Assembly: GCA_021803575.1 (NCBI GenBank)
Contig: JAJZLH010000010.1
Coordinates: 11,055-75,054 of the forward strand
DNA length: 64,000 nt
From: Bacillota bacterium
GTDB lineage: Bacteria; Bacillota; Sulfobacillia; JAJZYS01; JAJZLH01
Reading direction: 5' to 3'
A model generated the notes under the pieces. It saw only the letters and a list, made by a program, of their open reading frames with translations. It had not been told where the DNA came from and ran no database searches. Both the position numbers and the translations under genes were made by a program. Shown in pieces: positions 1 through 9,981 of this stretch (its first letter is position 1; the number at the start of each line of letters is the position of its first letter).

Positions 1-1224
1 CCGGGACCGATCAAAGGAGATATGGTGGCGCCCTTCGTCCGGCGCAGGCTGGGCAAGGAGCCGGTCACCTACCCGGCAGCAGGGCTGGAGGATGTGCTGC
101 AGCGCACCTACGGCGTGGTGGTCTATCAGGAGCAGGTGCTGGAGATCGCCGTGCGGGTGGCCGGGTTCAGCCCCGCTGAGGCCGACCAGCTGCGGCGGAC
201 GATGAGCCGGGCCCGGTCCAAGGCCCAGATGCAGGCCTTGGGCGAGGTGTTCTGCAGCCGGGCCGTCCAGCGCGGCGTGGACGGCGAGGCGGCAGGAGAG
301 ATCTGGCAGACCCTGCTCGGCTATGCCTCGTATGGATTCGCGGAGGGACATGCCGCTGCCTTCGGGCTGATCGGCTACCGCACCCTATACCTGCTGGAGC
401 ACCATTCCGCCGTCTGGTATGCAGCGCTGCTCAACCACCAGCCGATGGGCTACTACCCGCCGCAGACCCTGGTCACGGAAGCGAGGCGGCGGGGGATCGG
501 GGTGCGGGGGCCGGACGTGAACCAGAGTGCGATGCGGTGGACGGTGGAGGACGGTGCCCTTTGCTGCGGCCTCCTGCAGGTGCGGGGGCTAGACCAGGCC
601 GAGGCGGAGCGGGTGTTGGCCAACCGGCCCTACCGCACCGTGCGGGAGCTGGCGGAGCGAACTCAGCTGTCCAGGGCGGCGCTGCAGCAGCTGGCGATGG
701 CAGGGGCGCTGGACGGCATCTCGTCCAACCGCCGAAATGCGCTCTGGCAGATAGAGGGCCAAGCTGCCCTGAGGGACCTGCCTGACTTCACAGCTGCCCG
801 GCGGCTGGCCCTGGAGATGGCTGCCCTGGGCCTGGCCGTGTCGGCCCATCCGCTCTCCTTCTTCAGACCCAGCCTGGAGCGGGCCGGCGTGCTGCGCACG
901 GACCAGGCGCTGTGTGCGCCGCACCGGATGCAGGTGGCGGTGGCGGGGGCGCTGGTGCGTCCGCACCGCCCGCCCACCAGGTCCGGTGAGCGCGTGGTGT
1001 TCTTGTGCCTGGAAGATGAGAGCGGGCTGCTTGACGTGACGGTGTCAGAGGCAGTCTATCGGCAGAGTGCGGACGCCATCTTCGGACCGGACGCCTGGCT
1101 CTTGGCCATCGAGGGCACGATGCGGGAGGTGGGGACAGGTGCGAACCTGGATGCACAGCGGGTGACGCCTCTTCGCACCTATCTGAAGCAGGTTGGGCCC
1201 GCCAAGCTCCCGCTGCTGCGATGA
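1..1224 (+). CDS. dnaE: DNA polymerase III alpha-subunit family (DnaE/DnaE2-type), C-terminal ~400 aa; 5' end lies outside the window
   Basis: Open frame continues to nt 1 with no upstream stop. Contains the DnaE finger/HhH region 'YGVVVYQEQVLEIA...GFSPAEADQLRRTM' followed by an OB-fold segment 'RVVFLCLEDESGLLDVTV'. It ends ~30 aa after the OB fold, so there is no long tau-binding tail; that is compatible with Firmicute DnaE or error-prone DnaE2/ImuC and cannot be decided here. Confidence 0.7.
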   Translation, partial: PGPIKGDMVAPFVRRRLGKEPVTYPAAGLEDVLQRTYGVVVYQEQVLEIAVRVAGFSPAEADQLRRTMSRARSKAQMQALGEVFCSRAVQRGVDGEAAGEIWQTLLGYASYGFAEGHAAAFGLIGYRTLYLLEHHSAVWYAALLNHQPMGYYPPQTLVTEARRRGIGVRGPDVNQSAMRWTVEDGALCCGLLQVRGLDQAEAERVLANRPYRTVRELAERTQLSRAALQQLAMAGALDGISSNRRNALWQIEGQAALRDLPDFTAARRLALEMAALGLAVSAHPLSFFRPSLERAGVLRTDQALCAPHRMQVAVAGALVRPHRPPTRSGERVVFLCLEDESGLLDVTVSEAVYRQSADAIFGPDAWLLAIEGTMREVGTGANLDAQRVTPLRTYLKQVGPAKLPLLR

Positions 1225-1287
1225 GGGAACGCCGGTGCCCAGAGCGAAGCTAGGGGAGACGGAAATGGAAGGCGAGGTGGCCCGCCG

Positions 1288-1734
1288 GTGAAGAAGATTC
1301 CTCCGATCGCGCCCGTCGACGCCAAAGGACCGCTCGGTGTGGTGCAGCTGCCCAGGCTCTGGTCGAAGGTGCTGCTCGATGCCAACGGACTCTTGCCCGA
1401 GGGCTATCACGTCTGCGGCAACGGCTTCGACCGCATTGTGCTGGAAGGCCTGGGCCTGGAGCGCGAGGCGGTGCTGACCTACATCGTTTCGACGCGCCCC
1501 ACTTATCCGCAGTTTGAGGCCTGGGTGGCCTCCCAGGTCGGCCCGGTCTCCGCTGAGACCAAGGCAAGGATCAACGATGCCATCTTGAGGTTTGCGCCCA
1601 GCCCGGAGCGGCGCGCCCAGATCATCGAACGGCTGGGTCTGCCCCCTGACCATCCGGCCGCCACCATGGTGGAGCTGAACACGCTCGACGACTGGGCCGA
1701 GTTCCATCGCTACCTGACCGAGGAAGGGGCCTAA
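1288..1734 (+). CDS. conserved hypothetical protein, 148 aa (possibly DUF5069-like; uncertain)
   Basis: GTG start. Protein has hydrophilic conserved-looking motifs (GVVQLPRLWSKVLLDANG, CGNGFDRIVLEGLGL). No catalytic motif recognised. The 3' end overlaps the convergent SRAP gene by 4 nt. Confidence 0.4.
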   Translation: MKKIPPIAPVDAKGPLGVVQLPRLWSKVLLDANGLLPEGYHVCGNGFDRIVLEGLGLEREAVLTYIVSTRPTYPQFEAWVASQVGPVSAETKARINDAILRFAPSPERRAQIIERLGLPPDHPAATMVELNTLDDWAEFHRYLTEEGA

Positions 1735-2414
1735 TCGGAAGCTTCGGCAGCCAGCGGCCGGATGCATTCCGGCGAGTCAACGCGCGGGTCGCTGACGGCC
1801 CGTGACACTTGGTGTGCCTGCATCTGCTCCGCGTCATAGGGTGTCATTAGGCTGTCCAGATCAGCCTGGCTGGTGACAGCAGGGTCCAGCCAGACGCTCT
1901 CCTGCTCCGGGCGCACGATGACCGGCATGCGGTCATGCATGGGCGCGATCAGGGAATTCGGGCTGGTCGTGATGAGGCAGGCGCTGACCGTGCGCTCACC
2001 GCTGGGGCTCAGCCACTCCTCCCAGATGCCGGCCATGGCGAAGAGGTGGCCGTCCTTCATCGAAAAGTGCCACGGAGAGCGGTGCGGCGGTTTTCCTGTC
2101 CACTCGAAGAAGCCGTCCGCCGGCACCAGGCAGCGGCGCTGGCGGATGGCCTGGCGAAACATCGGCCGGGCAAAGACGGTCTCGCTGCGGGCGTTGATCG
2201 GCCCTGGGCGGCCGTCCCGGCTCCAGGTTGGGGTGAGACCCCAACGCAGCCACAGCACCCGCCGGCTGGCTGCCTGGCCGGTTACAGCCAGCACCGGCTG
2301 GGATGGCGCAATGTTGTAGCGAGGCTGGTAGAGGCGATGCAGTTCGGCCAGGTCCAGGAGGAAGCGGGCAGCCAGATCCTCGGCCGGAGCAGCCAGTGTG
2401 TAGCGTCCGCACAT
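1731..2414 (-). CDS. SOS-response-associated peptidase (SRAP / YedK / HMCES family), abasic-site processing protein
   Basis: N-terminus 'MCGRYTL' (catalytic Cys2 hallmark); family motifs 'WGLTP', 'NARSET', 'PADGFFEW'; 227 aa. Confidence 0.85.
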   Translation of the reverse strand: MCGRYTLAAPAEDLAARFLLDLAELHRLYQPRYNIAPSQPVLAVTGQAASRRVLWLRWGLTPTWSRDGRPGPINARSETVFARPMFRQAIRQRRCLVPADGFFEWTGKPPHRSPWHFSMKDGHLFAMAGIWEEWLSPSGERTVSACLITTSPNSLIAPMHDRMPVIVRPEQESVWLDPAVTSQADLDSLMTPYDAEQMQAHQVSRAVSDPRVDSPECIRPLAAEASD

Positions 2415-2419
2415 GGTAG

Positions 2420-2797
2420 CTAGGCATCTCCGCGATGGCAGATCTCCAGGAGGTTGCCATCGGGATCGGCGAAGAAGGCGGCGTAGTAGTCGGGAGTGTA
2501 CTCGGGGCAGGGTGCAGGCCCCTCCATCCCAATGGCGCCGGCTCCAGCCGCGGCGGCTGCGGCTGTATCGACAGCCACCCGCGATTCGGCGCCAAAGGCG
2601 ATGCGGGTGTGCCCGGGCCGGTGGGAGCTGTCCTCAATCAGGCTGAAGAACGGCCCCAGGCGATGGGGCGATGAAAACTCCACCCAGCCGTGATCCTCGT
2701 CATGCTCGGACAGACCCAATAGCGGCAGCCAAGCCCCGTAAAAAGCCCGAGCCCGCTCCAGGTCGCCGACGCGCAGATCGATGTGGTCGAGAATCAT
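2420..2797 (-). CDS. VOC / glyoxalase-bleomycin-resistance family protein (~125 aa)
   Basis: ORF 2420-2935; start moved to the internal ATG (residue M47, 'MILDHIDLRVGDLERARAFY') because it is preceded by GGAGG at 8-nt spacing. C-terminal 'DPDGNLLEI' is typical of the VOC fold. Lies 5 nt upstream of the SRAP gene on the same strand (probable operon). Confidence 0.6.
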   Translation of the reverse strand: MILDHIDLRVGDLERARAFYGAWLPLLGLSEHDEDHGWVEFSSPHRLGPFFSLIEDSSHRPGHTRIAFGAESRVAVDTAAAAAAGAGAIGMEGPAPCPEYTPDYYAAFFADPDGNLLEICHRGDA

Positions 2798-2940
2798 GGC
2801 CAAACCTCCGTCTGAGCGCTGCCTAGCCTGCTTCGCCATCGGCGCCGACTGCCCCTTGGCAGCAAGTGATAGGCTGACCGGTGGAGCCCGGCCGAGCACG
2901 GGACAGGAGACTGCCGGGGGCTGGGGAAAGGACACGAACC

Positions 2941-4056
2941 ATGGGATGGAACCCGCCGAGCCGGGGTCAGCGCCGGAAGCGCAAGATATGGAAGTGGCTG
3001 GCCGTCGCCGCGCTGCTGCTGGTGGCCACTGGGCTGGCTCTCCACGCCCGCCAGCGCTGGGGCCTGGTCAGTCTGCAAGGCGGTGCACTGACCGTCACGG
3101 TGAAGGGAACTCTGGTCGACACCGGCTTCTTGCACAGACCGTCCCCCAAGCAGTATGTGGTCAACGGCAGCGCTCCTGCACCTCTCCGCTTCACGTCCTG
3201 GTCTCCCGGCAAACTGGGGGTTGGCACCAACGATGCTCACAACCCGGTCTACCATGGCTTGTTCTATGTCACCACCCAGATGTTTCCAGCCAATTCGTAC
3301 GTGCAGGTTGTGGTCTATCCGATGACCGTTTCCACTGGTGCCAGGCAGAGCGCCGAGACGGTCGTGGCGGTGCAGACCGGCTCTACAGGCCGCACCGGCC
3401 TGATCAACTACCTGGTGGTGTCAGAGCTCTCGTTCAATGGTCACAAGCCACGATTCCTGGTGGGCTATGCCCACGGCTACATCGCCGACGCCGCCACAGC
3501 GTCGTACGCTTACCACCGGGCAGCCCGCCTCGTTGCAGCGGACGTCCCCTATACCGTGACCATTCAGACCAACGGAACCACCACTGCCCGCTACTGGTTG
3601 GACAACCAGCTGGTCTTCGCCTCCGCCAACCTGAAGCTGGCGATTCAGCCACCCTTTCAGGTGTACCTCGAGGTGCAGGCAGACAACATGCGCTATGAGG
3701 CGTTTTTCAAGCACTTCGCAGTGTTCTCGGGCTCGACCGTCCGCCTCTTCCATCTGCCGCCGGGTGCCACGGTGTCCTTCACGGCATCGACCGCCCACCT
3801 GCATGCCACGGCGTCGGCAGGCGGGGTCGCCCTGCTACAGATGCCGACTCCCACCTTGCAGGCGACAGGAACCCTGGCCGTGCGCGCACCGAGTGGAGCC
3901 AGTTGGGCCTGGACCGGGCAGACGCTCAGCGGCGGTGAGGTGGTGCGCTTTGACGCCATCCCGCTCGCCTTGCGCTGGATGGCTCTGGTGCCGCGCGTCA
4001 CACTGCCGCCGATCCACTGGCCGAGGCTGCACTTGCCGTGGAGTCGCCTGCCATAG
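2941..4056 (+). CDS. hypothetical membrane-anchored/secreted beta-rich protein (371 aa)
   Basis: ATG at 2941 (M21 of ORF 2881-4056) preceded by AAGGA. Basic N-terminus, then one TM/signal-anchor 'IWKWLAVAALLLVATGLAL', then a long V/T/Y-alternating region. No recognisable domain. Confidence 0.45.
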   Translation: MGWNPPSRGQRRKRKIWKWLAVAALLLVATGLALHARQRWGLVSLQGGALTVTVKGTLVDTGFLHRPSPKQYVVNGSAPAPLRFTSWSPGKLGVGTNDAHNPVYHGLFYVTTQMFPANSYVQVVVYPMTVSTGARQSAETVVAVQTGSTGRTGLINYLVVSELSFNGHKPRFLVGYAHGYIADAATASYAYHRAARLVAADVPYTVTIQTNGTTTARYWLDNQLVFASANLKLAIQPPFQVYLEVQADNMRYEAFFKHFAVFSGSTVRLFHLPPGATVSFTASTAHLHATASAGGVALLQMPTPTLQATGTLAVRAPSGASWAWTGQTLSGGEVVRFDAIPLALRWMALVPRVTLPPIHWPRLHLPWSRLP

Positions 4057-4089
4057 CCGGAGAGGGGAGGGCTGGCAGGAGTACACGCG

Positions 4090-4809
4090 CTAGTTCTCGA
4101 GGTAGTCGTCTGTGAAGGGCCGCAGGTCCAACTCGAAGCTCCAGCTCGAGGGCGCTTGGGTCGCCACCTGGTAGTAGGTCTCGGCGATGTCGGCGGGGTG
4201 CAGGTAGTCCGGGGCATCCCCCGCCTCTCTGGCGGCCCTGGGCGTCAGGATGGCGCCGTCGATCAGCAGGTGGGCGATGTGCACGCCCTGGGGGCCCCAT
4301 TGCCGCATCAGGGACATGGCGAGGCCGCGCAGGCCGAACTTGGCGGAGGCGAAGGCAGGGGCCCTCCCGGGCGCATGCACCGACGAGGTGGCGCCGGTGA
4401 AGAGCAGCGCGCCGTTTTGCCGCCTTGCCATGGACGGCAAAAGCCGCCGGGCGTGGAGGAAGGCGCCCCATGGCCCGGTTTCCCAGGCGGCCCGAAACTC
4501 TTCGGGACTGACCTGGTCGACGCCGCCGGGCACATAGTTGCCAGCGTTGTACAGGAGGAACTGGACCGGACCGAGTGCGGCCTCCAGCCGATCGATGGCG
4601 CCTGCCACCGCCTCTTCATCGCTCACGTCGTAGGGCAGGGCCAGGGCCCTGCCGCCAGCGGCCGTGATCTCGTCGGCGACGGCTGTGATGGCCGCGCCGG
4701 AGCGCGCTCCTAAGGCGACCGGGTGCCCGGCCGCGGCGAAGCGCCGGGCCAGGGCCGCACCAAGGCCCAATCCCGCGCCGGCGACCAACACAGATCCCTG
4801 GTCAGGCAA
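4090..4809 (-). CDS. SDR-family short-chain dehydrogenase/reductase-like protein (~239 aa)
   Basis: ORF 4090-5103; likely TTG start at residue L99 with GGGGGTG just upstream. Rossmann motif 'VLVAGAGLGLGAALA' and 'LYNAGN' present. The active-site YxxxK position reads 'FASAK' (Tyr replaced by Phe). Confidence 0.55.
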   Translation of the reverse strand: MPDQGSVLVAGAGLGLGAALARRFAAAGHPVALGARSGAAITAVADEITAAGGRALALPYDVSDEEAVAGAIDRLEAALGPVQFLLYNAGNYVPGGVDQVSPEEFRAAWETGPWGAFLHARRLLPSMARRQNGALLFTGATSSVHAPGRAPAFASAKFGLRGLAMSLMRQWGPQGVHIAHLLIDGAILTPRAAREAGDAPDYLHPADIAETYYQVATQAPSSWSFELDLRPFTDDYLEN

Positions 4810-5101
4810 GAGAGCACCCCCGTGGCGGCTAGGAGACGTGGCGCCTGGTTCATTCCGCGTTTGCCCACAGAACCCTGGCGCCTTGCCAGTCATCCCGGGT
4901 GGCCGATCACCGGGAAGGGAGGCGATGGGGCCCTGGCAGCCGGGGTGACCGGCCGCCCCAGGGCATCTCCAGGACATGAGACAGGCGTCGGCGAACGGTC
5001 GGCGAAGCCACCCAGCGGATGGCAGGGCCTCGGGCGGGTCATGGTGGGCGGCCGGACGGGGCAGTGGCAGGATCCGCCCGGCAGGTGAGGGGAGGGAGCC
5101 C

Positions 5102-5338
5102 ATGCTGACTCTCTATGGCGCACTCGCCGTGTGCTTGATGATGGTCTTCTACGCCCTCGAGCCGCGTGGGAGGCGCTTCACGCTCCTCTTCGCCGTGGCC
5201 TGTGCCCTGTCGTCGCTCTACGGCTGGCTGGCTGGAACATGGCCGTTCGGCGTGGTTGAGGCGGTCTGGGCACTTCTGGCCGTGCGGAAATGGTGGCGGC
5301 TCGACCCGCACCTGCCGCAGACGGGCGGGCCCGACTGA
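5102..5338 (+). CDS. small hypothetical membrane protein (78 aa, 2 predicted TM)
   Basis: ATG at 5102 (M43 of ORF 4976-5338) preceded by GGGGAGGGAG. Hydrophobic segments 'LTLYGALAVCLMMVFYAL' and 'LLFAVACALSSLYGWLAG'. Confidence 0.35.
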   Translation: MLTLYGALAVCLMMVFYALEPRGRRFTLLFAVACALSSLYGWLAGTWPFGVVEAVWALLAVRKWWRLDPHLPQTGGPD

Positions 5339-5441
5339 GCGGCGGATCGAGCGGAGGGTGTATCGTGCGGGGAGGATGGCTGAGGCGGTGGGCGTGAAGC
5401 CAGGGAGTGATCCGGGCCAGAGGCTGAAGGAGGAGAGCCAA

Positions 5442-6641
5442 GTGCGCTACGACTTCGATCGCCCGGTGGACCGGCAAGGGACAGCGTCAATCAAGTGGGA
5501 CGGCCGCACCGACCGCTTCGGGAGAGCAGACGTCCTTCCCATGTGGGTGGCCGACATGGACTTCCCGTCTCCGCAGCCGGTGATCGAGGCACTGGCCGGC
5601 CGCGTCGGACACGGTATCTTCGGTTACACCAGGGCCGACGAGGACTACCGGCAGGCCGTGATCGGCTGGCAGGAGAGACACCACCACTTCACGCCCCGCC
5701 CGGAGTGGCTGTGCCACAGCCCAGGCGTGGTGGCTGGTCTGGCCCTGATGGTCAGTGCATACAGCGCAGCCGGTGACGGCGTGATCATCCAGCCGCCCGT
5801 CTACCACCAGTTCAAGGCCGTCCTCGACGCGCTTGGCCGCCGGACCGTGCTCAACCCTCTGCGCTATGATGGCGAGCGCTACACGATCGATTTTGCCGAT
5901 CTGGAGGCCAAGGCGGCCAGCGCCAAGATGCTGATCCTGTGCAGCCCGCACAACCCGGTCGGCCGGGTCTGGCTTAGAGACGAACTGGTTCGGCTGGGAG
6001 AGGTGTGCCTCCGCCACGGTGTGCTGGTGATCTCTGACGAGGTGCACGCCGACCTGGTGCTGGGAGATGTGCCGCACACGCCGTTTGCCAGCATCTCAGA
6101 GGAGTTCGCCCATCACTCTGCCACCTGTGTGTCGCCGAGCAAGACCTTCAATCTGGCTGGCATGCAGACGGCGGTGGCCATCATCGCCGACCCTGAGCTG
6201 CGGCGGGCGTACGACCGCTGGCTGCACGACTACCACCTGTGGGGGTTGAATCCGCTTGCCCTCACGGCACTGGTGGCAGCCTACACCCACGGCGACGAGT
6301 GGCTGGAGCAGCTATTGGCTTATCTGCGCGCCAACGCCGCCCTGGTCGTGAGTTTCGTCCGCGATCGGATGCCCGAGCTTCGGGTGCAGCCGCCAGAAGC
6401 GACCTACCTGATGTGGCTGGACTGCCGGGCGCTCGGCATGACAGGCTCGGCACTGGAGCGCTTCTTCGTGGAGGAGGCGGGTCTTGGTCTGGACGGGGGA
6501 CACCAGTTTGGGGTGGGCGGCGACGGCTTTCTGCGCCTGAACATCGCCACAGCGCGCTCCCGGCTGGTTCAGGCCCTCGAGCGCATGGAGAACGCGCTGT
6601 CGGGTCGGCCCCGGGAGCGGGCCGCAGCCACCGAGGGCTAG
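5442..6641 (+). CDS. patB: PLP-dependent C-S lyase (PatB/MalY-type cystathionine beta-lyase, aminotransferase class I/II fold)
   Basis: GTG at 5442 (V93 of ORF) preceded by GAAGGAGGAG. N-terminus 'RYDFDRPVDRQGTASIKWD...LPMWVADMDF' matches the PatB/MalY signature; PLP-lysine region 'SPSKTFNLAG'. Confidence 0.75.
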   Translation: MRYDFDRPVDRQGTASIKWDGRTDRFGRADVLPMWVADMDFPSPQPVIEALAGRVGHGIFGYTRADEDYRQAVIGWQERHHHFTPRPEWLCHSPGVVAGLALMVSAYSAAGDGVIIQPPVYHQFKAVLDALGRRTVLNPLRYDGERYTIDFADLEAKAASAKMLILCSPHNPVGRVWLRDELVRLGEVCLRHGVLVISDEVHADLVLGDVPHTPFASISEEFAHHSATCVSPSKTFNLAGMQTAVAIIADPELRRAYDRWLHDYHLWGLNPLALTALVAAYTHGDEWLEQLLAYLRANAALVVSFVRDRMPELRVQPPEATYLMWLDCRALGMTGSALERFFVEEAGLGLDGGHQFGVGGDGFLRLNIATARSRLVQALERMENALSGRPRERAAATEG

Positions 6642-6894
6642 GTAGCCCTCGATCCTGGCAGGACGTCAGTCGTTGGCGAGAGAGCAACGGGGCAGTCTTC
6701 CCTGCTGTCCGTCGCCAGCGAGGCGGGGCGCAGGTGAACCCGTGACACTCCGCTCGGCCGGTTGCAGCGTGTGCACCACAAGCCATGGGCCACTTTTCAC
6801 TAGGCAGGCGCGGGGATACCATAGCGATGAGGGGGGAGTGAAGGACCTGTCCTGACAGAGCCGACTCGCCAGTTGCTCGCAGGAGAGCGATGTC

Positions 6895-9339
6895 ATGGTT
6901 TACGCCGAGGAACATCGCCGCACACGTTTTCTTCCTCTTTCATCCTATTGGTTCGCTGTGAATATGCAGTCAGCAGCACTGCTCGCCATCGCGGTGCCGG
7001 AGAGCCTGCTCCGCTTCGCCGGAGCTGGTCACACCACAGCGCTGGCGCGGGTTGCCGCCATGGGCGCCATCGTCTCCATGGTCGTGCCGCCAGCGATGGG
7101 GTGGGTCTCGGATCGCTGGAAGCAGCGCGGCATTCAGCGGCGGACCATTGTCGTGGCCGGCGCCGTCGCCAACGTGGCCGGCCTTCTGGCCATGGCCCAG
7201 GCCACCAGTCTGACTACCCTCACCCTTGCCTTCATGCTCACCATGCTCGGTCAGAATGCGGCGCTGGCCGCCTTCGAGGCGCTCTTGCCAGATGTTGTGC
7301 CGGAGAATGCCTGGGGACGGGCCTCAGGCGCCATGGGTGTAGCCACGCTCACCGGCAGCATCTTCGGCCTGATCTCGGCCGGGCTGCTAGGCGCCGCCTG
7401 GGCTTACGAGATCATGGCCGTGACCACCGTTTCGGCTCTCGTCCTCACCTACTGGGTGCATGAGACACCAAAGGCAGAGCAGGCGGCTGAACCAGCGAGC
7501 GAGGTCCCGAAGAGCAGACATGACTTCGGCGTGACGTTTGTGGCCCGCTTTCTGATCATGCTGGGCCTCACCTTCCTGCTCACCTTTGTCCTCTACTTCT
7601 TTCAGGATGTGCTGCACGTGCAGAATCCCGGCGAGGGCACGGCAACGGTGGCTGGCGTCGCCCTGATCGGAGCCGTGATCTCAACCTGGGCGATCGGGCA
7701 CATCGCCGATCGGGTGAAGAAGTCCTACGTGGTGGCCGCCTCCGGCGTGCCGATGGCGCTGGCGGTCTTCGGCTTTGCCCTCTTCCCGGAGGAGCGTGTC
7801 ATCTTCGCCCTTGGCATCCTCTACGGCCTCGGCTACGGGGCGTTCCTCTCATCGGACTGGGCGCTCGCCCTGGCCACGCTGCCAGATCGCCACCATCGGG
7901 CCCGCGACCTCGGCATCTGGGGCATCGCCTCCAGCTTGCCAAATGTGGTGGCACCGGCCATCGGCGGCGTCATCATCACCGCCTACGCCCTGCCCGCGGT
8001 CGGTTACCGCGTGCTCTTCGCCGTGTCGGGTGCGTGCCTACTGCTGGGCTCGGCAGTCGTTCTGGGCGTAGGCCGGCCGGAGAACCGCACCTCGCTGCTG
8101 CACATGGCCTTCATGGCCTTCATCGCCGGCATTCTCACCGCCTATGTCAAAATTGCCTACCGCTCGCGCATCATTGGCCGTCTTCCCTTCCGTCGCGGCG
8201 CCACGCTGGTGGTTGCCAACCACAACCAGGACCTGGAGGGCATGGTGCTGCCGGCCGCCCTCTTCCTGGGCGGTCCGTGGACCCGGCCGGTGTACTCAGC
8301 CGGCTCGCGCCGCCTGTTCGAGCCCTACTTCCTATGGGATAGGGCGCCGAAGTGGCTCCGCCCGCTGGTGGCGTGGCTGCCGCTGATGCACATCATGAAC
8401 GCCCTCGGGGTCCTCCCCATCGAGAACCAGCCGCGCCGCCGGCCGCTCTCCAGCCTGCTCTATGACATCCGCCTTAGGGAAGGTGATCTTCCGCTCGCCT
8501 CCGTCATGACAGCCGAGGGCCTGGCAGAGCTGTCCCAGGCGGCAGGTGTTGATCTCAGCGCCGCCCGCCTCTCCGACGTGTGGCGCCGGGCGCGCCTGCG
8601 CGACGCCGGCCGGCGAGAGGCCTCCTACCGCCTCTTGCAGCCCGCTTACCGCGAGCAGATGAAAGTCCGCACCCGGGAGATGGTGAGAGAGCAGTTCGCC
8701 AGGCTCAAGGCTGTGCTTGTGTCAGGCGGCACCCTCTATCTCACCCCGGAGGGCATGATGTCCCCGGATGGCCGGCTGCACCGCTTCAAGGAGATCCTCC
8801 GGGTGCTCCAGCCACTGGCCGATCAGGTGTTCATCGCCACCCCGTCGTGTGATCCCTTCGCCTCTGGCCGCCTCGCCATGACCCTGCGCATCGTGCGGGC
8901 CAGCAGCCCGGACCTGAGAGGAGAGATCCTGCGGGCCCGCCCGATCACCGTGAGCCAGGTGCTGGCCGAAGCCCTGATCATGCTCAAGGGGCCGGCCTAT
9001 CCCGAGGAAATCGCGGAGGCTGCCCTCGGCGGCCTCGACACCCTGCCTGCCGAGGCCTGCCTGGTTCCTGCCGCCAAGTCCGATTGGGCGCGGCGGATCC
9101 GGGGCGAGATCGCGACCCTCCGTGCCCGCCGCATCCTGATCGACGCAGGAGACGGCCGCCTCGTCCTCTCGCCCAATCGCCACGATCGGCGCTTTTCCCA
9201 TATCCCCGACATCGTGGTGGCGTGCGCCAACATGCTGGCCGACGCCAGGGCCGCCTTCGCGACGGCGCAAGCCGCCCCCGAGCCGGCAACCAGCCGGACG
9301 GAGGCGCTTGGCGGCGGAGCACAGCGGTATGGCAGTTGA
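6895..9339 (+). CDS. fusion protein: N-terminal MFS transporter (~12 TM, LplT-like) + C-terminal lysophospholipid acyltransferase (LPLAT/PlsC-like) domain
   Basis: Single 814-aa ORF. Residues 1-~400 form a hydrophobic MFS-like 12-TM region with an MFS loop 'GWVSDRWKQRGIQRR'. The C-terminal half carries LPLAT motif I as a variant 'ANHNQDLEG' (H-x4-E instead of H-x4-D) and a clear motif III 'LYLTPEGMMS' (compare FPEGTR). Resembles an E. coli LplT/Aas-type lysophospholipid re-acylation system fused into one polypeptide. Confidence 0.65.
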   Translation: MVYAEEHRRTRFLPLSSYWFAVNMQSAALLAIAVPESLLRFAGAGHTTALARVAAMGAIVSMVVPPAMGWVSDRWKQRGIQRRTIVVAGAVANVAGLLAMAQATSLTTLTLAFMLTMLGQNAALAAFEALLPDVVPENAWGRASGAMGVATLTGSIFGLISAGLLGAAWAYEIMAVTTVSALVLTYWVHETPKAEQAAEPASEVPKSRHDFGVTFVARFLIMLGLTFLLTFVLYFFQDVLHVQNPGEGTATVAGVALIGAVISTWAIGHIADRVKKSYVVAASGVPMALAVFGFALFPEERVIFALGILYGLGYGAFLSSDWALALATLPDRHHRARDLGIWGIASSLPNVVAPAIGGVIITAYALPAVGYRVLFAVSGACLLLGSAVVLGVGRPENRTSLLHMAFMAFIAGILTAYVKIAYRSRIIGRLPFRRGATLVVANHNQDLEGMVLPAALFLGGPWTRPVYSAGSRRLFEPYFLWDRAPKWLRPLVAWLPLMHIMNALGVLPIENQPRRRPLSSLLYDIRLREGDLPLASVMTAEGLAELSQAAGVDLSAARLSDVWRRARLRDAGRREASYRLLQPAYREQMKVRTREMVREQFARLKAVLVSGGTLYLTPEGMMSPDGRLHRFKEILRVLQPLADQVFIATPSCDPFASGRLAMTLRIVRASSPDLRGEILRARPITVSQVLAEALIMLKGPAYPEEIAEAALGGLDTLPAEACLVPAAKSDWARRIRGEIATLRARRILIDAGDGRLVLSPNRHDRRFSHIPDIVVACANMLADARAAFATAQAAPEPATSRTEALGGGAQRYGS

Positions 9340-9370
9340 GATGCTGAAGCGGACTTCTGGGATGCTTCTA

Positions 9371-9550
9371 CTAGACCGAGCGTCTGACTTTGGCCGTTTG
9401 CTTCTTCACGGTCTTTCCGGCCCTGGTGACCGCCTTCTTGACTTCCTTGGCCTTCTCATTGACAGTTTTCTTCATTTCCTTGGTCTTGTCGCGGGTTGCC
9501 TCGCGGATGTCCTTCATTCCTTGTTTCATTGCCTGCGTGGTCTTCGCCAT
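9371..9550 (-). CDS. unannotated small protein, 59 aa, Lys-rich with three 11-residue repeats (LEA-like / stress or nucleic-acid-binding?)
   Basis: Absent from the ORF track (below its 60-aa limit). Minus-strand ATG at 9550-9548 is preceded by GAGGAGGGG at 6-nt spacing; TAG stop at 9373-9371. Translation: MAKTTQAMKQGMKDIREATRDKTKEMKKTVNEKAKEVKKAVTRAGKTVKKQTAKVRRSV. Repeats KEMKKTVNEKA / KEVKKAVTRAG / KTVKKQTAKVR. An AT-rich island (about 9575-9640) lies immediately upstream in a ~70% GC genome. Confidence 0.5.
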   Translation of the reverse strand: MAKTTQAMKQGMKDIREATRDKTKEMKKTVNEKAKEVKKAVTRAGKTVKKQTAKVRRSV

Positions 9551-9905
9551 TTCGGGCCCCTCCTCAGATTGGAACTCGCCTCATAAAAGTAAGTTTACAC
9601 CAATAATAGCGGTTAAAACCATTTTGCCGAGAAAGATCGCAGATGCGAGATGGGCATGGGCAGCACAGGGTTGAGACAGCTCTGGCCGGACGCCGCCGCC
9701 ACCCACCGCGCTGGCAGCAGTGCCGCGAACGGACGCATACCAGCGCTGGCCGGTAGTTTGGCAGGTGACAGGGCGGGGAGCGGCGCCGTTGGAGGGGCGT
9801 TGTGACGAAGCGACGGCGCGAGGAGACGGTTGGGCGGCGCGCCAAAATAGGAGAGGTCATTGGCAGACAGGTCGCACACTGCACCGTCTGCCCTTAGGTC
9901 AAATC

Positions 9906-9981
9906 TGGTGGAGGCGGGGGGAATCGAACCCCCGACCTATTGATTGCGAACCAATCGCTCTCCCGACTGAGCTACGCCCCC
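9906..9981 (-). tRNA. tRNA-Ala (anticodon CGC)
   Basis: Reverse complement reads GGGGGCGTAGCTCAGTCGGGAGAGCGATTGGTTCGCAATCAATAGGTCGGGGGTTCGATTCCCCCGCCTCCACCA. It has a 7-bp acceptor stem with the G3:U70 wobble diagnostic of tRNA-Ala, a D-arm GCTC/GAGC, an anticodon loop TTCGCAA (anticodon CGC), a T-arm GGGGG/CCCCC with TTCGATT loop, and an encoded CCA. Confidence 0.85.

Follow-up and report, generated by a model that had tools for sequence, protein, structure and literature searches.

The question raised by this locus is whether a short open reading frame (ORF) downstream of a tRNA-Ala gene encodes a protein and, if so, what that protein would do. The small ORF lies on the minus strand of a 64,000-nucleotide (nt) stretch of DNA, referred to as the window, from a Bacillota bacterium (GenBank assembly GCA_021803575.1, contig JAJZLH010000010.1, positions 11,055 to 75,054). 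It is probably a real gene. The favoured, though still tentative, reading of its product is a lineage-restricted cationic surface-binding helix, which would work like alpha-synuclein, perilipin or SHERP while standing outside those protein families.

Eleven-residue periodicity and the predicted helix

The small ORF starts with ATG, stops with TAG and encodes a product of 59 amino acids (aa), MAKTTQAMKQGMKDIREATRDKTKEMKKTVNEKAKEVKKAVTRAGKTVKKQTAKVRRSV, as a sequence-only reading of this DNA had proposed. Two features carry the description of the protein:

9371-9550 including the stop codon, minus strand: small ORF with a Lys-rich product, based on the sequence, public gene calls, periodicity and AlphaFold2
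9427-9490, minus strand: two copies of a 31-nt direct repeat, 77% identical, encoding [D/E]K[T/A]KE[M/V]KK[T/A]V

After the initiating Met, the protein consists of five in-phase 11-residue units (residues 2-56, window positions 9547-9383), namely AKTTQAMKQGM, KDIREATRDKT, KEMKKTVNEKA, KEVKKAVTRAG and KTVKKQTAKVR, followed by RSV. The sequence-only reading had quoted three such units; all three are present, but the count was too low. Lag 11 gave the strongest BLOSUM autocorrelation, which was reached by none of 20,000 shuffles, and the Eisenberg hydrophobic moment of residues 2-56 peaked at 98 degrees (360 x 3/11) with a value of 0.46, compared with 0.13 +/- 0.07 for shuffles (p < 5e-5). Since tandem repeats force power onto the 1/11 harmonics, a control that keeps the repeat was also run, in which the 11 columns were permuted identically in all units. 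The observed moment was reached by 0.57% of these permutations (p = 0.006), and the other four 1/11 harmonics were at or below 0.16. The 11-residue amphipathic periodicity of the apolipoprotein, alpha-synuclein and LEA type that had been ascribed to this protein is therefore beyond chance, as judged by the lag-11 signal and the moment, and it is accompanied by a single predicted helix.

Within the 11-residue unit, columns 3 (TIMVV) and 7 (MTVVT) form a narrow, weakly hydrophobic stripe flanked by columns 10, 11 and 6, while Lys fills columns 1, 4 and 5 and columns 2 and 9 contain the acidic residues. The sequences of units 1 and 2 have drifted apart, with their hydrophobic columns kept. The protein is small (6.7 kDa), basic (isoelectric point, pI, 10.7; net charge +14; 34% Lys+Arg) and hydrophilic (grand average of hydropathy, GRAVY, -1.24), and it contains no Pro, Cys, aromatic residues or hydrophobic segment. 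AlphaFold2, run with no alignment, predicted a single helix spanning residues 2-58 (mean predicted local distance difference test score, pLDDT, 89.8). The copies of the 31-nt direct repeat (9427-9457 and 9460-9490) lie at 33-nt spacing, which indicates that the units arose by internal duplication of an 11-codon unit.

Comparison with known families points to a type of helix and not to a family. With matches listed to E <= 10, no Pfam model reached its cutoff. The best match was Apolipoprotein A1/A4/E (PF01442; 17.3 bits, E = 0.004, gathering cutoff 90), and weaker ones were found to YtxH (PF12732; 14.1 bits, E = 0.07, cutoff 37.5), covering profile positions 26-70 of 71 only, to DUF948 (PF06103; 11.7 bits, E = 0.3, cutoff 37.2), covering positions 32-80 of 89 only, and, also below cutoff, to ApoO. 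LEA_4 (PF02987) and Synuclein (PF01387) gave no Pfam match even at E <= 10. Among NCBIfam models, sll1863_fam (NF052504) scored 16.1 bits (E = 0.01, cutoff 35) and a ZorA tail was also weakly matched; PHROGs and PADLOC returned noise only, ZorA coiled-coil tails included. The best match among 177,635 PDB sequences was SHERP (2x43; phmmer E = 0.0089, 19.7 bits, residues 4-51 against 5-52), a marginal score between two low-complexity helical proteins. A BLASTP comparison with human alpha-synuclein gave E = 1.5, and the KTKEGV motif is absent from the small protein. Membership of the LEA, apolipoprotein or synuclein families was thus not upheld. What the weak matches have in common is the amphipathic surface helix, which informs on physical resemblance and not on descent. 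By its features, the protein falls into the functional class of class A or 3-11 amphipathic lipid-binding helices (a moment at 98 degrees, Lys flanks and an AlphaFold2 helix), and its five in-phase 11-mers are tandem 11-residue amphipathic repeats of the LEA_4 type.

The 11-mer repeats of apolipoproteins, alpha-synuclein and perilipins adopt 3-11 helices when bound to lipid, and Plin4 has no aromatics and many Thr and Val residues (PMC5889406). The small protein shares with the alpha-synuclein N-terminus, Plin4 and the exchangeable apolipoproteins an 11-residue periodicity with a straight hydrophobic stripe, a weak non-polar face of V, T, A and M, the lack of aromatics and the placement of lysines at the edges (PMC5889406; PMC3135411). 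It differs from these lipid binders in being bacterial and an orphan, in having five units only and no KTKEGV, and in its net charge of +14, whereas Plin4 carries about +1 per 33-mer. SHERP of Leishmania, a hydrophilic protein of 57 residues, is peripherally attached to membranes and takes up its fold only on anionic lipids or SDS (PMC3059043). The two proteins are similar in length (57 and 59 aa), and both are hydrophilic with no defined domain or orthologues, but SHERP is kinetoplastid, much less basic and forms a helix-turn-helix, while the small protein is predicted to be one straight helix. The match to SHERP is most likely compositional on the sequence alone, and common descent is not implied.

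Bacterial LEA_4-like 11-mer proteins exist, e.g., BilRI of Aggregatibacter (PMC8096337), and the small protein resembles group-3 LEA and bacterial LEA-like proteins in having hydrophilic 11-mers with many K, A, T and D/E residues and the capacity to form amphipathic helices (PMC8096337). It is much shorter than group-3 LEA proteins, with far fewer acidic residues, and no signal peptide or lipobox is apparent in its sequence. Its resemblance to YtxH, DUF948 and sll1863 proteins consists of the weak match to their amphipathic helical parts, a host that also belongs to the Bacillota and a possible sigmaB-like promoter. The scores are less than half of each cutoff, and the aligned part of the models is confined to their C-terminal helical region. 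Proteins of the YtxH/DUF948 type are expected to carry an N-terminal hydrophobic membrane helix, for which the small protein, with its GRAVY of -1.24, has no counterpart.

The same composition bears on a different function for a real gene, namely that the product is a small basic helix coating DNA, rRNA or ribosomes, much as histone H1-like, nucleoid-associated or ribosome-associated stationary-phase proteins do. Such a role would agree with the net charge (+14), the pI of 10.7 and the 34% Lys+Arg within 59 residues, as well as with the lack of a membrane anchor and with a strong ribosome-binding site that suggests abundance. LEA proteins, apolipoproteins and SHERP carry much less positive charge, and with +14 being atypical for the first two, nucleic-acid coating, mentioned in the sequence-only reading, is kept under consideration. 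However, a 55-residue hydrophobic stripe at the exact 11/3 angle, a hallmark of interface-binding helices, would be superfluous for polyanion binding, the Pro/Ala/Lys motifs PAKK and AKKA of bacterial H1-like proteins are absent, and no ribosomal or nucleoid family was matched, even weakly, in Pfam, NCBIfam or PDB. Nucleic-acid binding is considered unlikely.

Start signals, base composition and promoter-like hexamers

The putative signals for expression of the small ORF lie in the DNA immediately 5' of it:

9557-9565, minus strand: Shine-Dalgarno (SD) sequence GAGGAGGGG, 6 nt 5' of the ATG
9595-9630, minus strand: predicted promoter-like hexamers in the AT-rich leader, from consensus matches, a sigma-70-like pair overlapping a sigmaB-like pair

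The SD sequence (9565-9557) is followed by the 6-nt spacer cccgaa and the ATG, in agreement with the strong SD described before. The pattern GGAGG-N5-10-ATG occurs 34 times in the window, and many of these occurrences are genuine gene starts, murE, mraY and ftsZ among them. Judged by these starts, strong SD sequences are used by the host organism and that of the small ORF is typical of them. The ORF had been described as unannotated, which is not so in public data, where it is called as a gene with a 59-aa product on nine contigs, including NCBI GCA_027344905.1, and gene callers call this product in every public assembly that carries it. It is intact in all 10 same-species loci fetched, which are >99.9% identical to each other. 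On its 3' side, a convergent gene for an 814-aa protein ends at 9339, leaving a gap of 31 nt to the stop codon.

The window has a mean GC content of 69.2%, and 9401-9600 is the lowest of its 320 bins of 200 nt (0.515; the next lowest is 0.585). The noncoding leader of ~100 nt upstream of the ATG (9550-9649) has a GC content of 0.45. In the small ORF, GC content at the three codon positions (GC1/GC2/GC3) is 0.45/0.38/0.75, and its GC3 can be compared with 0.78 and 0.69 in neighbouring mraZ and rsmH and with a mean of 0.86; codon use is slightly off the genome norm, with more AAA, CAA and GGA. Lysine makes up 25% of the small protein, as against 1.6% in the long ORFs of the window, and since GC3 stays at 0.75, the low GC within the ORF is an amino-acid effect. 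Thus, the AT-rich island pointed out earlier is the lowest bin of the window, but its truly AT-rich part is only the ~100-nt leader. With GC-rich third positions, the small ORF is unlike freshly imported AT-rich DNA, and horizontal transfer was rejected as the cause of its low GC.

These third positions are shared with the opposite strand, where a hydrophobic ORF of 94 codons (9390-9674, plus strand) remains open and would, if it were the coding frame, specify a small membrane protein and account for the GC3. It would start with TTG, has no SD sequence and extends through the AT-rich leader. It gave no family match above noise and is never called by gene finders in public assemblies, and a hydrophobic antisense frame is the expected mirror image of an AAG-rich coding sequence. 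Coding on this strand is very improbable. None of the overlapping and antisense ORFs gave a family match.

The leader was correctly described as promoter-like, in that hexamers resembling promoter elements lie in its GC-0.45 stretch, although their nature is predicted. A consensus scan found a sigma-70-like TCGGCA-N16-TATTAT at 9630-9603 (minus strand). The sigmaB-like GTTTTA-N13-GTGTAA at 9619-9595 (minus strand) matches the GTTTAA-N12-15-GGGTAT promoter at 5/6 and 4/6 positions. The promoter had earlier been written as GTTTTAA-N13-GGTGTAA; these heptamers are 11 nt apart, and a spacer of 13 nt is valid only for the hexamers. The pattern GTTTWA-N12-14-GKGTAW has a single match in the 64 kb, at 9619-9595, but the match is weak evidence because the pattern was written after the site had been seen and the site lies in the sole AT-rich stretch. 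The sigma-70-like pair fits equally well, and the sigmaB reading is speculative.

This promoter bears on the reading that the sequence-only account had preferred, a strict LEA-type hydrophilin or general-stress protein that would serve as a sigmaB-dependent desiccation or osmotic protectant and shield proteins and membranes. The 11-mer periodicity, the high hydrophilicity, the weak matches to YtxH, DUF948 and sll1863_fam, the single promoter match in 64 kb and the existence of bacterial LEA_4-like 11-mer proteins (PMC8096337) are all in its favour. Against this, LEA_4 went unmatched at E <= 10, all stress-family scores are less than half of their cutoffs and involve only the C-terminal part of the models, the N-terminal membrane helix known from YtxH- and DUF948-type proteins is absent, the promoter pattern was post hoc and in the only AT-rich stretch, and a charge of +14 is atypical. 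The proposal amounts to a narrower version of the surface-binding model, with little that supports it specifically, and is quite improbable.

An RNA element was considered at this locus and rejected. An Rfam scan matched only the tRNA, and neither the leader nor the spacer nor the 3' region folds more stably than shuffles. In the minimum free energy (MFE) fold of the leader, UCUUUCUC (9627-9636, minus strand) pairs with the SD element GAGGAGG (9557-9566; z = -0.36 against shuffles), and in this model it could act as an anti-SD sequence. The UCUUUCUC arm would fall outside the transcript under either proposed promoter.

The tRNA-Ala-adjacent segment and its turnover

The surroundings of the small ORF are defined by three further features:

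9906-9981, minus strand: tRNA-Ala(CGC), found by ARAGORN, 355 nt upstream of the small ORF
9862-9892, minus strand: hairpin downstream of the tRNA, from folding, with an energy within the range of shuffles
6542-9902, no strand assigned: lineage-specific segment containing an 814-aa MFS-fusion gene, the small ORF and the spacer, delimited by the break in homology with the sister-species locus L103

The tRNA gene is the only one in the window, and the small ORF starts 355 nt downstream of its 3' end on the same strand, as had been noted. Just 3' of the tRNA, at 9892-9862, is the hairpin GGCAGAC...GUCUGCC, which has no adjacent U-tract and an energy not beyond shuffles; from its position, it may form the end of the tRNA transcript.

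Relatives were sought at the level of the species and beyond. The closest MraZ cluster has 85% identity, with one member named Sulfobacillus sp. at NCBI, and in a MraZ scan of metagenomes for relatives, no match exceeded 49%. Over 3.2 kb, the same-species contigs agree at >99.9% of positions, the sole difference in the small ORF being R56G, and they are thus uninformative about selection. In the sister species represented by loci L103-L108, synteny is kept on both sides of the segment. Nucleotide homology between L103 and the window (~73-75%) extends up to 6541, the end of an aminotransferase gene, and resumes at 9903, at about the 3' end of the tRNA. The corresponding segment of L103 contains transposase fragments and two hypothetical genes and is bounded by a 55-nt partial copy of the 3' half of the tRNA (L103 6717-6771), an att-like direct repeat. 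In the second sister species (L100/L101), the tRNA is directly adjoined by a tyrosine integrase gene (L100 8552-9733), and in L100, genes for SMODS, restriction-modification, EAL and MazE proteins lie upstream of the integrase. By these comparisons, the DNA next to tRNA-Ala in which the small ORF lies is exchanged from species to species. The conservation in close relatives that could have spoken for the ORF gave no support, since the same-species contigs are near-identical and the aminotransferase-to-tRNA segment has been replaced in both sister species. A scan of ~1 Mb of fetched DNA, with 5,886 small ORFs, found none in the sister loci with a similar 11/3 moment.

Because sister-species homology stops there, the 3' end of tRNA-Ala(CGC) upstream of mraZ is an integration hotspot. 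Within the window, a partial tRNA copy or att-site remnant was looked for and none was found. The positions 6717-6771 and 9826-9903 of L103 enclose a ~3-kb degenerate element flanked by the 55-nt partial tRNA copy. In L100 (sister metagenome-assembled genome GCA_021850485.1), the island adjoining the integrase (positions 1-8526) includes two SMODS genes (CBASS-type nucleotidyltransferase) and XhoI- and Eco57I-like restriction genes, together with genes for an EAL-domain protein, a MazE antitoxin and an HTH_36 protein, and from this gene content it looks like a defence island. The contigs of two independent Logan assemblies (SRR33270664 and SRR13236739) break at the identical base inside tRNA-Ala, at window position ~9933, which is consistent with co-occurring related species that have this tRNA in common and different sequence downstream.

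Of the neighbouring genes, that at 6895-9339 (plus strand) encodes the 814-aa protein, which has an N-terminal MFS_1/PUCC transporter domain and a C-terminal extension of ~400 aa. Some of its homologues have a PF01553 acyltransferase domain, and by analogy the protein is reminiscent of LplT-Aas-type fusions for lysophospholipid transport and re-acylation. The gene converges on the small ORF across the 31-nt gap, which has no terminator. Its relatives (75-76% identity) have a different neighbourhood, between a Mur ligase and a penicillin-binding protein gene, and no adjacent small ORF. Further away, a 78-aa ORF with the strong SD sequence GGGGAGGG (5102-5338, plus strand) lies between a short-chain dehydrogenase/reductase gene and the aminotransferase gene and has no Pfam match. 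A 76-aa gene is called at the matching position in L103 (5003-5233), and on the basis of this matching position only, the 78-aa ORF may encode a conserved small protein, unlike the 59-aa ORF.

A proposed cationic surface-binding helix and its significance

The history of the segment raises the alternative that the small ORF is non-functional, a fortuitous or decaying frame in the scar of a former integrated element beside tRNA-Ala, in which AAG-type 33-nt duplications read as Lys-rich and the SD sequence arose by chance. The replacement of the segment in both sister species, by a tyrosine integrase with a defence island in one and by transposase fragments with a 3'-tRNA direct repeat in the other, speaks for this alternative, and a GC3 of 0.75 against the mean of 0.86, with more AAA, CAA and GGA codons, would also suit it. 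It accounts less readily for the coincidence of an SD sequence, optimal spacing, an ATG and an open frame in a stretch of ~50% GC where stop codons should be frequent, for a promoter-like leader at exactly the right place, and for an amphipathic arrangement that is better than 99.4% of the column permutations that keep the repeat. The diverged units 1 and 2, in which the hydrophobic columns are nevertheless kept, and the intact frame in 10 of 10 same-species loci, though these are >99.9% identical, likewise stand against it. It is because of this coincidence of start signals, the placement of the leader, the GC-rich third positions, the survival of the amphipathic design in the repeat-keeping control and the retention of hydrophobic columns that a real gene is the more probable interpretation, and a non-functional ORF is rather unlikely.

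A membrane-surface helix is favoured for the product because a 55-residue stripe at 11/3, a weak face free of aromatics and flanking lysines together form the signature of interface helices. In the favoured reading, the gene would be monocistronic, with a promoter of its own in the AT-rich leader and efficient translation owing to the strong SD sequence, and it would have lengthened through tandem duplications of a 33-nt unit. Its product would be a cytoplasmic microprotein of 6.7 kDa forming one continuous cationic amphipathic helix with 11/3 (hendecad) periodicity. As a free peptide it would presumably be disordered or weakly helical, and its folding would take place on an anionic interface, for which the cytoplasmic side of the membrane, with its phosphatidylglycerol and cardiolipin, is the most probable candidate. 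There, the V/M/I/A/T stripe of columns 3, 7, 10 and 11 would insert shallowly and the lysines of columns 1, 4 and 5 would bind lipid head groups, so that the membrane surface would be coated or stabilised, as it is by alpha-synuclein, the 11-mer regions of perilipin, apolipoproteins, group-3 LEA proteins and SHERP.

Several observations weigh against a functional surface-binding helix. A word-indexed search of 5.8 billion clusters found no homologue, and an exhaustive phmmer search of 1.84 billion representatives found no credible one; its sole match, a 2934-aa satellite-like tandem-repeat translation (P0001), was judged spurious, as its score is the sum of 13 weak stretches. No homologue was found in metagenome or viral contigs or by tblastn of plasmids and phages, a search that the low-complexity filter may blunt, and tblastn and blastn of 108 fetched loci found no trace of the small ORF as protein or DNA. 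The exact protein sequence is absent from a collection of 15 billion proteins, although the gene index has nine contigs with it; L34 (46 aa) and RMF (55 aa), searched as controls, are present, so short proteins are not systematically excluded from this collection. At the syntenic site of both sister species, the ORF is absent rather than frameshifted. No intrinsic terminator was found in a scan downstream of it, and the only polymorphism seen in it, R56G, is non-synonymous. Tandem duplication alone yields lag-11 periodicity automatically, GC3 does not discriminate between the strands of the overlapping frames, and a net charge of +14 would be equally suited to binding nucleic acid or lipid. 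The empty homologue searches, the absence from the 15-billion collection, the missing terminator and the non-synonymous variant also speak for a non-functional ORF.

A more specific proposal, itself somewhat unlikely, is that the protein is a recently born or fast-evolving microprotein that arose from 33-nt duplications in the scar of a tRNA-adjacent island and converged on the solution used by alpha-synuclein, perilipin and SHERP, sensing or stabilising anionic membrane surfaces under stress. If this were true, it would be a minimal, 59-residue prokaryotic analogue of these proteins, unrelated by descent to any known family. The ORF is restricted to a single uncultured, Sulfobacillus-like species, which limits the conclusions, and no long-standing question is opened by the finding. 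If expressed, the protein would be a very small natural bacterial example of an 11/3 amphipathic helix and a convenient minimal system for studying surface binding driven by charge and a weak hydrophobic stripe, and its gene would illustrate how a microprotein gene can arise in rapidly changing DNA beside a tRNA integration site.

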